Shown here in pieces: positions 42,114 to 47,980 of a stretch of DNA of 64,000 bases. Position numbers and translations under genes: made by a program. The stretch lies in assembly GCA_025336685.1 (NCBI GenBank), contig GCA_025336685.1_4717.1; one strand, 5' to 3'. This stretch comes from Escherichia coli. Its GTDB lineage: Bacteria; Pseudomonadota; Gammaproteobacteria; Enterobacterales; Enterobacteriaceae. Each line of letters starts with the position of its first letter. Within the stretch, counting starts at the first letter, position 1. The notes below the pieces were generated by a model. The model ran no database searches. It was given only the letters and a program-made list of their open reading frames with translations, and was not told where the DNA came from.

Positions 42114-42788
42114 TTAGCCCTCATCAAGGTTATTCTGGAGATGCATTGCGGTGAGAATAACACCAACTGCCGAAACCGATTTTGCCTTGCTGTCTTCGGG
42201 TAGCTGTTCCAAGCTTACGGTACCTGTTTCTAACAGCATGCGGTTCATCGCGTTGAACTTCTTATCGTCGCCACCACGAGCCTGCATTAACTCTCGGTTC
42301 ACGTTCGGCATCGATCGTCCTAACGTCGCTTGCATTTCCGGCTGACTCCAAGTGGAACCTTTACTATCACCCGTCGGCTGATTGGTGAGCTGGTCCTTGG
42401 TGTTGTTGTTTTTCGGAATCGATATTTTAGCACTCAACGTTTCGGCTTGTCGGCGGTTTGGAATCAGGTACAATCTGGTTGGACGATCACGAAGCACCAA
42501 TTGTCCTGTTTTCTGATCGGTGAGATAAACGCGTTGGAAGAAAGGGAAACCGTATTTCTTGCCGACTTCCAGTGCGCGTTTTATCGTCACCTCGTTTTTG
42601 TTCATATTGGGTACCCAGATGGGTAGAATCTCTTTCTTATCCCGACATAAACGCATATACGCATCAAACGTCTCATCATCGATTTCAGCAAAACGTTTTT
42701 TGTAAATAGCGTAGGTCGGACTCGATCCCCCCACCAGGTCTTTGATATACCCAAGAATGAATTTTTCTGCTGCAGCGCGGTTGGACAT
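42114..42788 (-). CDS. hypothetical protein (224 aa)
   Basis: ORF track. Confidence 0.5.
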   Translation of the reverse strand: MSNRAAAEKFILGYIKDLVGGSSPTYAIYKKRFAEIDDETFDAYMRLCRDKKEILPIWVPNMNKNEVTIKRALEVGKKYGFPFFQRVYLTDQKTGQLVLRDRPTRLYLIPNRRQAETLSAKISIPKNNNTKDQLTNQPTGDSKGSTWSQPEMQATLGRSMPNVNRELMQARGGDDKKFNAMNRMLLETGTVSLEQLPEDSKAKSVSAVGVILTAMHLQNNLDEG

Positions 42789-42797
42789 AAACGTCTC

Positions 42798-43139
42798 CTA
42801 TTGTCGTGTCTGTTGCGGAAATACCCGAAACACCTGGACGATGATGTTCTTGTCCTCGCGATTGGCGATGTCGATCATGTGTTTTGTTCCAGGACTTTTG
42901 AAATCCCAGAACGCAACTAGATGCGTAATGACATCGCCCATCCACTCGTTGCGTCTGAATCCAGCACCTTTACGATAAGGGCCATCCCAATCGGCAGGAA
43001 ACGTAGTGTATTTAAACCCGTAATCCTTCGCATAGCGGCGCACATGCAAATCAGCACCTGAACGCGCACCGCCAGCAATGAGATGAACTTTGTCGTGAGG
43101 GAGGTTATGTAACATCTGGTTCATACGCTTTTCGAACAA
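42798..43139 (-). CDS. DUF2493 (SLOG-superfamily)-like protein
   Basis: 113 aa; HLIAGGARSGADL...FPADWDGPYRKGAGFRRNEWM...LVAFWD matches the remembered DUF2493 pattern GGAxGAD...FPADW...AGPxRN...AF. From memory. Confidence 0.45.
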   Translation of the reverse strand: MFEKRMNQMLHNLPHDKVHLIAGGARSGADLHVRRYAKDYGFKYTTFPADWDGPYRKGAGFRRNEWMGDVITHLVAFWDFKSPGTKHMIDIANREDKNIIVQVFRVFPQQTRQ

Positions 43140-43192: not shown

Positions 43193-43513
43193 TTATCTTC
43201 CACCGCGCAATGACTTTACGTTGCGTGCAATAAAGGGTGCAACGTAATCACGGAAATTATGGATCCATCCTTTAATGGGTTGATTGTCTAGTAAGCACTC
43301 TCGCACCGAGAACGTACTTACTTCTAGTACACCGAACTGCAATCGCCAATAACGATTGATTTCGGCTTGGGCGTGTTCTAAAGTCATGTACTCAGGAACA
43401 CGAGCCAGCAGATCGTGTTTAAATTGCTCGGCAATCGCTGGCTGATGCGATGCAATTGTCTGTGCGATAACATCAACCAGTTCGTGCGCGTGCTTGATAG
43501 CAGGTGCGGTCAT
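43193..43513 (-). CDS. hypothetical protein (106 aa)
   Basis: ORF track. Confidence 0.4.
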   Translation of the reverse strand: MTAPAIKHAHELVDVIAQTIASHQPAIAEQFKHDLLARVPEYMTLEHAQAEINRYWRLQFGVLEVSTFSVRECLLDNQPIKGWIHNFRDYVAPFIARNVKSLRGGR

Positions 43514-43525
43514 TTATTCAGCCTT

Positions 43526-45016
43526 TTATTTTTTGCTTGGACGATTTAATGCAGGTACCGGGTTCTTTGGTTGCTTTGTCTTTTCATCCATCCAGTACGG
43601 GAAGTACTCACCGGTACGCATACGCAATAAGTCCATTGTGGACAAGAACGGTAGCGGGTTAGGATCATCCAGATATGTCCAGTAACCGCGTGTGTTTAAC
43701 AACACATCCCAATCGAATCCTTTTGCTTTAAGATCGTCGTACAGTTCCTGCGGGGTGCAATACAATTGCGGATTTTCGTAAACCTCTTGACGCCAGAGAT
43801 TATGCATCTGACATAGCTCCGACGTAATTTCCAGAGCACGCTGTAAATACTCATCTTCTTCGCAGAGGGAACGAATGGTTGTGCGCTGTAACGCAACATC
43901 CGGATAAATATCCAAATACACCGTTGAAGCACCATCAGCTGACTTACCACCTGATGCATGCATACCCCAACCACGCATCCAATCTTTATCACGTAGGTAG
44001 TGGTATTCTGTTAATGATGGTTTAACCCCCTCGCTCTGACTAACCACAATCGGGAACGGTAAGCCGGTGGGTCCGTTTTTAGCACGCATGTTGAAGACTT
44101 GGATCATCTGTAGATCGGTATCACCGATAAGGTTATCACCAGGTCCACGCGGATAAAGAACGCGTTTATCGGTGTTCTGAAGAATCGTCAGTTTATCGAT
44201 TTTCCAGAGGTTATTCGTATAAAACGTGAAGCGTTCCGGGACGTTCTTAAACTTCTCATCGCCCTTAAACCCTTTCAGTTTTCGTACCGGCTGCTGTCCT
44301 GGCATACCACCAACGTTTACACCGTCACCGAGGTGGGCGGTCATGGTAATGTAGATACCAGCTGACGCTGTGAGTACCGGCATCTGTGATAGAATCTGGC
44401 TTTTCGCTGCTGCCGAACGCATCGCTTCAGCATTCAGTTTTGCACCACCTGCGGTTTCTTTATCAAACAGTGCGTCAACGGCATCGATTGGTAATCCAGA
44501 GAAACTGTCGATGAGTACGACGGTCGGTAACCACCAGGTATAGTTCTCACCATGTTTATTAATGAACGGAACAGCTTTGCGTTGGGATTTATCTTTGACC
44601 TTGTCGTCACGGAATTTCTTAATCGCATCAAACCAAATGTTACCACTCATCTGAACAGCATCGGTGATAAACACACGTTCTTCTTCGAAAAGATCGACAC
44701 CCGCGATATTAGACATGTTCATCGCAAGCGTTAAGATACGTGTTGTCGTTAACGACATTTCTGTATCGTAAACGCTACTATTGCTGTTCGCGTAACGATC
44801 AATAACACGTAACAAGCGAAACATTATGAACGTGGTTTTGTTCATGTTGCCGCGAGCGCCTGCGCCCTCAACAAGCATCATACCGCCGTTACAAATGCTT
44901 TCACCGTGTTTACCGACATAGTACCGACCACCAGATGTGGGAATATCCATTAAGCAACCAATGTTGAGATTAAAACGCATCTCTTCACCGGGAGAAAGGT
45001 ACTTATTAAGATTCAT
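43526..45016 (-). CDS. RecA-fold ATPase (RecA/UvsX- or DnaB-like) with non-canonical P-loop
   Basis: 496 aa; P-loop-like VEGAGARGNMNKTTF (NK instead of GK); Walker B-like VVLIDSFSGLPIDAVDAL; ETAGGAKLNAEAMRSAAAKSQIL resembles the RecA segment GDSHMGLAARMMSQAMRKL. Confidence 0.4.
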   Translation of the reverse strand: MNLNKYLSPGEEMRFNLNIGCLMDIPTSGGRYYVGKHGESICNGGMMLVEGAGARGNMNKTTFIMFRLLRVIDRYANSNSSVYDTEMSLTTTRILTLAMNMSNIAGVDLFEEERVFITDAVQMSGNIWFDAIKKFRDDKVKDKSQRKAVPFINKHGENYTWWLPTVVLIDSFSGLPIDAVDALFDKETAGGAKLNAEAMRSAAAKSQILSQMPVLTASAGIYITMTAHLGDGVNVGGMPGQQPVRKLKGFKGDEKFKNVPERFTFYTNNLWKIDKLTILQNTDKRVLYPRGPGDNLIGDTDLQMIQVFNMRAKNGPTGLPFPIVVSQSEGVKPSLTEYHYLRDKDWMRGWGMHASGGKSADGASTVYLDIYPDVALQRTTIRSLCEEDEYLQRALEITSELCQMHNLWRQEVYENPQLYCTPQELYDDLKAKGFDWDVLLNTRGYWTYLDDPNPLPFLSTMDLLRMRTGEYFPYWMDEKTKQPKNPVPALNRPSKK

Positions 45017-46537: not shown

Positions 46538-47980
46538 TCAGACTCGCGATATGTTACCGCGTACGCTTTCGTTTCCGGCGATGCTAAATAGCTCAAGTTC
46601 AGACGTTGAGGCAGGTCTAACCCTACGACATGGTACAAGACGTAACACCCTGCTTATCGGGGTCAGTCTGTAATTCACGTCCACCTTCAAGCTTTTCGTA
46701 ACCTGCGTAATCGCACTATGCACTTTGGTAACCGTTTTACCTTTCTTATCCTTTTCTGTTTCGAAAAGAACGTCGGTAATTTCGGTTACGACCAGACGCG
46801 GTGTGGATTCGCGGTTAGCGTCAAGCCATTCATCCAGTAACGTCTTTAAGAAGTTCAAGGAATCAATCGCACGCCAAGCAAGGTTAGGCGGATTGCATGC
46901 TTCCATTAAAATGGCTGTGTTCGATCCACCTAGCGGAAGATGCACGCTCTTACCGAGGCCTGTCGGACGCATCGTAAGATCGCACTCACCCTCAAGAATA
47001 TCGCGATGATGTTGACGATGATGAAGGTTATCCGTGTATGCGATATACACTGACTCCGTTGTCCCATGCTCTAATACCCGAGATGCATGCGTACGCATAA
47101 TCTCAATAGCATCATCCGGCTTGCTTAAATAGATAACACTGTACGCGCTATCGCTAATCCTTTTCCCTAACTCAAGACGTCCCTTGTTGTCTTTATCGGT
47201 GTTACCACCGAAATAGATGTAGCGACCATCTTTCGCACGCTCTTGCTGCTGATTGGTGGTAAAGTAGCAGCGCGAGAACGTAAAGAACGGACTTATTTCC
47301 GGTTCGGGACTCCAATACCCCTTAGCCGGAAGTTCGCGACGTATTTGGGTTCTTACAGCCCAGTCCTGGTTTTGTGATAGATATGTTCCACGCGTTGCCA
47401 ACATATCCGCACGTTCGTTACCAACATTGCCCTCATGTCCAGGAACGTAACGCAGCGAAATATCGATAGCGTCGCGCTTCGCATCCCTTATCGCACTATC
47501 GAGTTTCCGCCACCGTTCCGCATTCATTAACGGTTTATTGTCGGATTTAACCCAGTTGTTCTCTCGCCAGTTAGCAAGATGGTTGGTGGCACCTACAACA
47601 ACATATTGGCTGTCCGACAACAGCTGGATCCGTTTTGCCCCCTTTGCTTTTCCAAGTTCAATCGCACGTATTGCAGCATCCAACTCAGCCTGATTGTTCG
47701 TTACGTTGAAACCCAAAGCCTCTAACTCATCCACGTATTCCTTGGGTTCGACCAGCACAGCGTCTTTAGGAAAGTTGAGTTTAGGGTCAACATAACCGTA
47801 TTGTGTTGGTTTGGGCTTTCCACTTTTTGAAGGTTCCAAGGTGCCTTTTATTTCTTTCACCATATCGTAGGTGTAGCCATGCACGCCATAGCCACCATAC
47901 CCACTCGATGTTGGACGGGATCCTCCATCACAGTAGAAAACGGCACCAAGCTCAGTATTTCCTGCCATTGTAAACCTCAT
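46538..47980 (-). CDS. RNase H domain protein with about 290 aa C-terminal extension
   Basis: N-terminal residues match the RNase HI catalytic layout: YCDGGS (Asp), NNQAELDAAIRA (Glu), LSDSQYVV (Asp), NWRENNW, PGHEGNVGNERAD (His/Asp). Confidence 0.8.
   Translation of the reverse strand: MRFTMAGNTELGAVFYCDGGSRPTSSGYGGYGVHGYTYDMVKEIKGTLEPSKSGKPKPTQYGYVDPKLNFPKDAVLVEPKEYVDELEALGFNVTNNQAELDAAIRAIELGKAKGAKRIQLLSDSQYVVVGATNHLANWRENNWVKSDNKPLMNAERWRKLDSAIRDAKRDAIDISLRYVPGHEGNVGNERADMLATRGTYLSQNQDWAVRTQIRRELPAKGYWSPEPEISPFFTFSRCYFTTNQQQERAKDGRYIYFGGNTDKDNKGRLELGKRISDSAYSVIYLSKPDDAIEIMRTHASRVLEHGTTESVYIAYTDNLHHRQHHRDILEGECDLTMRPTGLGKSVHLPLGGSNTAILMEACNPPNLAWRAIDSLNFLKTLLDEWLDANRESTPRLVVTEITDVLFETEKDKKGKTVTKVHSAITQVTKSLKVDVNYRLTPISRVLRLVPCRRVRPASTSELELFSIAGNESVRGNISRV

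Follow-up and report, generated by a model that had tools for sequence, protein, structure and literature searches.

The gene at positions 43526..45016 on the minus strand of the window (the whole stretch of DNA that was analyzed, 64,000 nucleotides), a 496-aa open reading frame with an ATG start, very probably encodes a functional recombinase of the RecA/UvsX type from a Goslar-like nucleus-forming jumbo phage, as judged from its sequence. As part of this explanation, and held with the same good confidence, the asparagine that precedes the catalytic lysine of its P-loop (Asn59) would be a tolerated variant, the lineage-typical state at a site where the family needs no glycine. The identity of the gene, its orthology, its fold, its pattern of conservation and the correctness of the sequence are established. 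The recombinase as such is already known as a core protein that has been localized experimentally, and its departure from the textbook P-loop is shared with the family in general and with UvsX of phage T4.

Genome setting and orthology

At the DNA level the open reading frame is 95.1% identical to Escherichia phage vB_EcoM_Goslar, and no other match in the phage collection was that close. Positions 30001-50661 of the window are collinear with positions 216635-237305 of Goslar, which is the end of the Goslar record, and on these matches the window is assigned to a Goslar-like chimallivirus, a nucleus-forming jumbo phage (Chimalliviridae). The protein shares 99.6% amino acid identity with Goslar HOV27_gp193 (Goslar_00243), from which it differs by two substitutions (T282A and M304L), and the two genes differ at 73 nucleotides, 66 of them in third codon positions. 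The ratio of 71 synonymous to two non-synonymous codon differences indicates strong purifying selection on the recombinase gene. In both GenBank and RefSeq the Goslar gene is annotated as a "hypothetical protein," and the exact window protein is found in the public collection as WP_260974173.1, "hypothetical protein [Escherichia coli]," encoded on 14 contigs, the longest of 241 kb. The 90% identity cluster around it has 89 members.

With the recombinase as query, tblastn gave one full-length match per record in 288 phage records, all of jumbo phages, with hosts including Pseudomonas, Erwinia, Salmonella, Vibrio, Serratia, Aeromonas, Klebsiella and Ralstonia, and many of these records are labeled "putative UvsX" or "UvsX-like recombinase." As one place per record was matched, each phage has a single RecA-like gene by this search. 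The matches include PhiPA3 gp175 (37.7% identity over 96% of the length, E = 6e-88), the PhiKZ-type phages (37.8% over 95%) and RAY (38.0% over 96%). Goslar, PhiPA3, RAY and the window have in common the gene order RNase H, small ORF, divergently transcribed gene and recombinase, and in Goslar, PhiPA3 and RAY small ORFs and then a fragment of the RNAP beta subunit follow in the same order. By sequence identity and synteny, the window protein is assigned as the orthologue of PhiPA3 gp175 ("RecA"), PhiKZ gp152 (Nlp1) and RAY gp150 (UvsX). The nuclear recombinases of the Chimalliviridae (Goslar gp193, PhiKZ gp152/Nlp1, PhiPA3 gp175, 201phi2-1 gp237 and RAY gp150) belong to this same orthologous group; they are about 460-500 aa long and have the gene neighborhood and the C-terminal extension of the window protein, which is 38% identical to the PhiPA3 and PhiKZ proteins over 95-96% of the length. 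The family is compact: when 1.84 billion representatives were searched with the family profile, 866 proteins scored E ≤ 1e-3, and 505 reached E ≤ 1e-30. The residue tallies given below were made by HMM alignment of the best 150 of these 866 representatives, which are mutually at most 50% identical, with 147-150 of them scored per position.

Several of these orthologues have been studied in infected cells. PhiPA3 gp175 is the nucleus-localized "RecA" that was used for proximity labeling, and the RecA proteins of both PhiKZ and PhiPA3 are imported into the phage nucleus. When nlp1 is deleted, PhiKZ replicates more slowly, forms small plaques and is sensitive to NucC, a nuclease of CBASS; the evidence for the PhiKZ recombinase is genetic. 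RAY gp150 UvsX is nuclear and belongs to the core genome of the Chimalliviridae, and in 100% of infections Goslar UvsX (gp193) was seen in association with the phage nucleus. The number gp193 is carried by the RefSeq locus tag of the Goslar gene discussed here, and Goslar_00193 of GenBank is only a 132-aa ORF, so that the published Goslar UvsX is probably the orthologue of the window protein.

A neighboring gene for a 113-aa protein of the SLOG/YspA type (42798..43139, minus strand; Pfam PF10686, E = 2.1e-8) might, by its context, encode a recombination mediator. It matches the C-terminal part of RAY gp153 with 36% identity (E = 4e-14) and sits where gp153 does, with the recombinase on one side and the RNAP-beta fragment on the other. 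RAY gp153 was named DprA in the RAY paper and is found in the phage nucleus.

Fold and family assignment

The first-pass annotation, which was made from the sequence alone, had described the product as a RecA-fold ATPase of the RecA/DnaB type. The fold is borne out. The AF2 model of the 496-aa protein (pLDDT 87) has a RecA-like alpha/beta ATPase core, the top eleven Foldseek matches of this model are all RecA (E from 2e-10), and the PHROG profile phrog_97, "UvsX-like recombinase," matches residues 17-465 (profile positions 50-345) with E = 2.4e-32. The same profile is matched collinearly by T4 UvsX (9.4e-105), E. coli RecA (2.6e-91) and PhiPA3 gp175 (2.9e-57). A lack of any RecA-fold match had been named as counter-evidence, and structure prediction found the fold.

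A profile search, which had also been proposed, gave a family with PHROG and none with the other collections: scans against Pfam-A and NCBIfam returned no family match even at E ≤ 10. When all PDB sequences were searched with phmmer (single sequence) and with hmmsearch (a 36-sequence family profile), the matches were chance ones, among them caspase-1, an antibody, lysozyme and a lectin. Alignment of the family with E. coli RecA by hhalign gave nothing usable, and that with T4 UvsX was weak (E = 0.0036; with a more diverse alignment E = 2.7e-4, probability 42%, 55 columns). The weak alignment is nevertheless in register over the P-loop and the catalytic glutamate, pairing N59 with F65, K60 with K66, E86 with E92 and R93 with Y99 of T4 UvsX. 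Membership by sequence is therefore carried by one PHROG profile together with the weak alignment to UvsX.

Structural comparison of the model gave the highest scores for bacterial RecA, with 25.0 over 291 residues for RecA 3cmu and 22.4 over 298 of 333 residues for S. pneumoniae RecA 8amd, followed by about 20 for RAD51C/RAD51D, 19.9 for phage UvsX 9gbg and 18.9 for T4 UvsX 3io5; DnaB scored 19.2 (over 225), T7 gp4 17.6 and KaiC 16.7. The order of elements in the model matches the RecA topology. A predicted strand (49-54) leads into the P-loop and a helix (60-74), and a second strand (79-84) leads to E86; the strand at 165-170 with D170 is followed by a loop with pLDDT below 50 at 187-189 and a helix (193-219), and the strand at 221-231 with H228 by a loop with pLDDT of about 50 at 232-250, a strand (302-312) and the sequence R-A-K. 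At the level of the model, the RecA fold is thus confirmed, and the recombinase (RecA/UvsX) branch is a better fit than the helicase or KaiC branches. For a DnaB-type replicative helicase the DnaB/gp4 core would be expected to come out on top in the structural comparison, along with a helical domain at the N-terminus and a ring architecture, and the window protein does not show this combination. Of the "RecA/DnaB-type" label the RecA part holds and the DnaB part is to be dropped: the family is of the recombinase type rather than the DnaB/KaiC type.

The P-loop and position 59

By translation, residues 51-62 read G-A-G-A-R-G-N-M-N-K-T-T, just as first described, and the Walker A motif or P-loop A54-R-G-N57-M-N59-K60-T61 (44834..44857, minus strand) is delimited by the translation, the family tally and the hhalign alignment to T4 UvsX. 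The glycine that precedes the lysine in the canonical [G/A]xxxxGK[S/T] motif is indeed absent from the window protein: N59 (AAC, 44840-44842) stands at the second Walker glycine site and A54 at the first. The Walker A lysine and Ser/Thr are in place, K60-T61 being aligned with K66-S67 of T4 UvsX. Across the best 150 of 866 representatives, K60 and S/T61 are kept in all 147 scored and N57 in 143 of 147, and position 54 is Gly in 126, Ala in 18 and Ser in three (n = 147).

Position 59, on the other hand, is occupied by Phe in 83, Tyr in 34, Gly in 16, Asn in six, His in three, Trp in two and Met in one (n = 147 among the same best 150 of 866). The loop reads SRPNNFKT in PhiPA3 and PhiKZ, GRGNTFKS in CR5 and Asesino, GGGNLYKT in RSL2, GPGNTHKT in vB_pir03, GGNNTQKT in FishSpeaker, AH04, MIZ-Pa99 and RisingSun, and GGSNTQKT in PDCC-1 and BUCTxx100. 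None of the named nuclear recombinases of the Chimalliviridae (Goslar, PhiKZ, PhiPA3, 201phi2-1 and RAY) has the second Walker glycine. The sole difference from the relatives at this site is the Asn of the Goslar clade, where PhiKZ, PhiPA3, the RAY-type phages and Asesino have Phe; RSL2 has Tyr, vB_pir03 His, and FishSpeaker, AH04 and RisingSun Gln. In T4 UvsX the loop, as read from the T4 genome, is G60-P-S-K-S-F65-K66-S67 (GPSKSFKS), again without a second glycine. Given F65 in T4 UvsX and Gly in only 16 of 147 representatives, the second glycine is no defining feature of the UvsX branch. In these alignments position 59 is permissive, with glycine as the exception and Phe or Tyr as the norm, and the nucleotide-binding site, which had been suspected to be unusual, is so only against the textbook motif.

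Asn at position 59 occurs in the Goslar clade (the window, P0001, P0002 and P0003) and in five other representatives. The latter are 43-46% identical to sequences bearing Phe, Tyr or Gly and 32-42% identical to other Asn-bearing ones; as each of them is nearer to F/Y/G-bearing sequences, Asn probably arose about six times. The side chain of Asn59 is most simply taken as a neutral or mildly modulating replacement. Both A54 (Ala in 18 of 147) and N59 (Asn in six of 147) are minority states, however, and reduced or altered nucleotide turnover is therefore conceivable. A literature search on the mutational tolerance of Gly71 in RecA returned nothing relevant.

Catalytic residues and other parts of the protein

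The putative catalytic glutamate lies in the segment D84-T-E86 at the end of strand beta2 (44759..44767, minus strand) and corresponds to E92 of T4 UvsX and E96 of RecA. E86, within Y-D-T-E, is kept in 145 of 147 scored among the best 150 representatives and is in register with the YDSE (E92) of T4 UvsX; UvsX E92 and RecA E96 have been assigned the role of catalytic glutamate (PMC3016280). By alignment, an invariant arginine, R93, is found at the site of UvsX Y99 and RecA Y103, which stack on the adenine (PMC3016280). With R93 in place of the stacking tyrosine, the adenine pocket would also be different.

The predicted Walker B strand, T165-V-V-L-I-D170-S171 (44504..44524, minus strand; model strand 165-170), has the expected hydrophobic stretch followed by Asp, and D170 is conserved in 149 and S171 in 144 of the best 150 of 866 representatives. 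By the order of secondary structure elements, residues 172-192 (44441..44503, minus strand) probably form an L1-like DNA-binding loop, with low model confidence only at 187-189. The end of strand beta4, T226-A-H228-L-G (44327..44341, minus strand), places H228 by topology at the site of T4 UvsX H195 and RecA Q194. These two residues sense the gamma-phosphate just ahead of L2, and the family likewise uses His or Gln at position 228, in 134 and 13 cases respectively (n = 150, best 150 of 866 representatives). Directly after this strand, residues 232-253 (44258..44323, minus strand) would correspond to the L2 DNA-binding loop; in the AF2 model pLDDT is below 50 at 234-237, and blocks within 231-250 are at 51-53.

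A [K/R]x[K/R] motif, R311-A-K313 (44078..44086, minus strand), follows the strand at 302-312, and each of its two basic residues is present in 149 of the best 150 of 866 representatives. In RecA (K248/K250) and UvsX (K246/R248) the bridge of this form crosses the filament interface to the ATP of the neighboring subunit and to the catalytic glutamate (PMC3016280, PMC12890299); both E92 and K246/R248 of T4 UvsX sit at the filament interface, and Rad51/Dmc1 are without the bridge (PMC3016280). The motif and its predicted position in the fold fit such a trans-acting RecA/UvsX bridge. We infer the assignments of H228, L1, L2 and R311/K313 from topology and motif.

Toward the C-terminus, residues 330-389 (43850..44029, minus strand) form in the model a small alpha/beta region weakly resembling the C-terminal domain of RecA, and residues 390-496 (43529..43849, minus strand) a family-specific helical extension with a basic tail, for which no counterpart was found among solved structures.

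Alternative explanations for the missing glycine

The alternative that fares best is a refinement of the preferred explanation and not exclusive of it: in a functional recombinase, the glycine-less P-loop (A54, N59) could change the kinetics or the chemistry of nucleotide use, the residue before the lysine acting as a tuning position, for instance toward slow hydrolysis and long-lived filaments or toward a UvsX-like production of ADP and AMP. Position 59 is the most variable site of the P-loop, directly beside the invariant K60, and has switched repeatedly between lineages (F, Y, G, N, H, W, M or Q). T4 UvsX, an ssDNA-dependent ATPase with Phe at the same site, is unusual in making both ADP and AMP, and the exchange at R93 points to a difference in the adenine pocket as well. 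The variation could, however, simply be neutral, and we hold this refinement to be rather unlikely. It can be taken further: if the second Walker glycine is dispensable in the recombinases of nucleus-forming phages and in T4 UvsX, the side chain replacing it (Phe, Tyr, Asn, His, Gln, Trp or Gly) might be an evolvable knob by which ATP turnover, the balance of ADP and AMP and filament lifetime are set, and the Goslar ARGNMNKT loop might be a slow-hydrolyzing variant with long-lived filaments suited to the phage nucleus. In this specific form we consider the proposal distinctly unlikely.

A pseudo-ATPase, which had been raised as a possibility from the sequence, would retain the RecA fold and DNA binding and have lost hydrolysis (or binding) of ATP, with a structural or regulatory function like that of some RAD51 paralogues. 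Both canonical Walker glycines are replaced and curated RecA models are unmatched, as might be expected of such a protein, but K60, S/T61, E86, D170, H/Q228, R311 and K313 are kept in nearly all of the 147-150 representatives at ≤50% identity (E86, D170, R311 and K313 in 145-149 of them). Conservation of this kind is not expected after loss of catalysis, and with the strong purifying selection on the gene it makes a pseudo-ATPase highly unlikely. The gene is moreover the sole RecA-like one in the phage by tblastn, its PhiKZ orthologue has a recombinase-type phenotype, and T4 UvsX is an active ATPase despite the Phe at the same position.

That the protein is a ring-forming ATPase of the DnaB/KaiC type, i.e., a helicase and not a filament-forming recombinase, is extremely unlikely in view of the better structural matches to RecA, which fills all of the top eleven Foldseek places. 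That the Asn codon results from faulty sequencing or assembly, for which the sole hint is that the loop strays from the textbook motif, has a virtually nil probability. The genome of Goslar, which was sequenced independently, has the same codons 51-63, the exact protein recurs on the 14 contigs, and GAGARGNMNKTT is carried by every one of the 15 distinct cluster members that were checked, whose sources are assemblies labeled E. coli, E. coli O157, Salmonella or Shigella as well as metagenomes (Logan/ENA). Relatives at 71-75% identity also have N-K-T, and a change from GGN to AAC takes two substitutions. The suggestion that homologues with canonical GKT would imply such an error does not apply as it was worded, since the homologues with GK[ST] are distant (≤50% identity) and the closest relatives have NKT.

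Proposed function and comparison with known recombinases

Under the preferred explanation of a functional recombinase with a tolerated Asn59, the protein would be synthesized in the cytoplasm and would then enter the phage nucleus, with its chimallin boundary, by import, as the localization reported in the literature suggests. There it would polymerize on single-stranded phage DNA into a helical filament with ATP between neighboring subunits; it is from the conserved residue set that we infer ATPase competence, filament formation and the roles of the individual residues. K60/T61 of the P-loop and D170 of Walker B would hold ATP-Mg and E86 would activate the water, H228 would sense the gamma-phosphate and couple it to the DNA-binding loop L2, and R311/K313 of the next subunit would complete the ATP site. 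By homology search and strand exchange the filament could then serve recombination-dependent replication and the repair of nuclease damage and breaks, a role in strand invasion that is suggested by UvsX and by the phenotype of the PhiKZ nlp1 deletion.

The likeness in sequence to T4 UvsX (PDB 3IO5) is barely detectable, extending over the 55 columns of the hhalign alignment at E = 2.7e-4. The window protein exceeds T4 UvsX in length by about 105 aa, shows core insertions as well as the helical C-terminal extension, has no predicted long N-terminal helix in the AF2 model, and carries the invariant R93 where UvsX has the adenine-stacking Tyr99; its site of action would be inside a protein-bounded phage nucleus. 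The two proteins agree in being without the second Walker glycine (Phe65 in T4 UvsX). Bacterial RecA (E. coli and S. pneumoniae; PDB 3CMU and 8AMD), in contrast, has a P-loop of the canonical form, GPESSGKT, and Gln194 rather than His, and the window protein has neither a significant sequence alignment to it nor a match to the Pfam RecA model. The extra length, the predicted absence of the helix, R93 and the invariant N57 of the P-loop are common to the chimallivirus family as a whole and are not specific to the window.

Implications

The "hypothetical protein" of Goslar can be re-annotated as the core UvsX/RecA-like recombinase that studies of the phage nucleus employ as a nuclear marker. The practical value is small, and the finding is a real but ordinary one. 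For UvsX-type recombinases the textbook GxxxxGK[ST] test raises a false alarm, as the second glycine is present in only about 11% of the chimallivirus representatives. Should it be true that residue 59 tunes ATP turnover, the family would constitute a natural mutational series for the tolerance of the P-loop in RecA-type filaments.

Family-Specific Features of the Recombinase

Two residues in the nucleotide pocket of the UvsX/RecA-like recombinase are family-specific. Asn57, at position 4 of the P-loop (window 44846-44848, minus strand), is kept in 143 of 147 representative family members (mutually ≤50% identical), whereas T4 UvsX has a lysine and RecA, with its P-loop GPESSGKT, a serine at this position. 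The second, Arg93 (44738-44740, minus strand), is invariant in both alignments of the family (A1 and the more diverse A2) and present in 129 of the 150 representatives, and it is aligned opposite the adenine-stacking tyrosine of T4 UvsX (Tyr99, corresponding to Tyr103 of RecA).

In RecA a long N-terminal helix mediates protomer contacts, but no such long helix is predicted in the AF2 model of the recombinase (residues 1-30; 44927-45016, minus strand). The N-terminus of the family instead carries a short conserved peptide with the consensus F-x-P-A-P-x-x-R-P-x-L-N, which reads Y-L-S-P-G-E-E-M-R-F-N-L-N in the protein of the window. The polymerisation element of the recombinase may thus be a different one from RecA's.

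Genes Neighboring the Recombinase

Directly downstream of the recombinase lies a 106-aa ORF (43193-43513, minus strand) belonging to phrog_6181, a family with no assigned function. The annotation of Goslar_00242 notes a similarity to a protein of PhiPA3; in that phage, the same neighborhood contains gp173, which is identical in length to the ORF. It is possible that the ORF represents a conserved partner of the recombinase. The second gene downstream encodes a 113-aa SLOG/YspA-type protein (42798-43139, minus strand; Pfam PF10686, E=2e-8) that aligns at 36% identity with the C-terminal region of phage RAY gp153 (E=4e-14), which was named DprA in the RAY paper and located in the phage nucleus. 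In RAY, gp153 occupies the same slot ahead of the RNAP-beta fragment, and the SLOG/YspA-type protein is a candidate recombination mediator.

The 224-aa protein encoded at 42114-42788 (minus strand) hits the profile phrog_3233 with E=1e-65 and is probably a fragment of a split multisubunit RNAP. The profile is named "RNA polymerase beta subunit," as is the Goslar orthologue of the protein in RefSeq, whereas GenBank gives a similarity to a virion structural protein for this orthologue. In the 480-aa RNase H protein (46538-47980, minus strand) the Pfam RNase_H domain is limited to residues 91-198, while the C-terminal ∼280 residues, conserved in phrog_3265, have no Pfam assignment.

Goslar Records and Deposits in Bacterial Assemblies

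Two gene-numbering schemes are in mixed use in the Goslar literature: the numbers of the shell protein (gp189) and PhuZ (gp201) agree with those of the GenBank genes Goslar_00189 (631 aa) and Goslar_00201 (326 aa). The number gp193 for UvsX, by contrast, is compatible only with the RefSeq tag HOV27_gp193, since the ORF tagged Goslar_00193 is 132 aa long. In both records (NC_048170 and MK327938) the recombinase is still a "hypothetical protein."

Window positions 30001-50661 correspond to Goslar 216635-237305. The window continues beyond the junction at ∼50661, where the linear Goslar entry in GenBank/RefSeq stops, which means that the genome it comes from either is a permuted version of this entry or was assembled as a circle. 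A cluster look-up found the exact recombinase protein (43529-45016, minus strand), named "hypothetical protein [Escherichia coli]" in the database, on 14 contigs of up to 241 kb, and near-identical cluster members are labeled as E. coli O157, several serovars of Salmonella, and Shigella flexneri. Evidently, assemblies of enterobacterial isolates carry whole genomes of Goslar-like jumbo phages, deposited as bacterial contigs.
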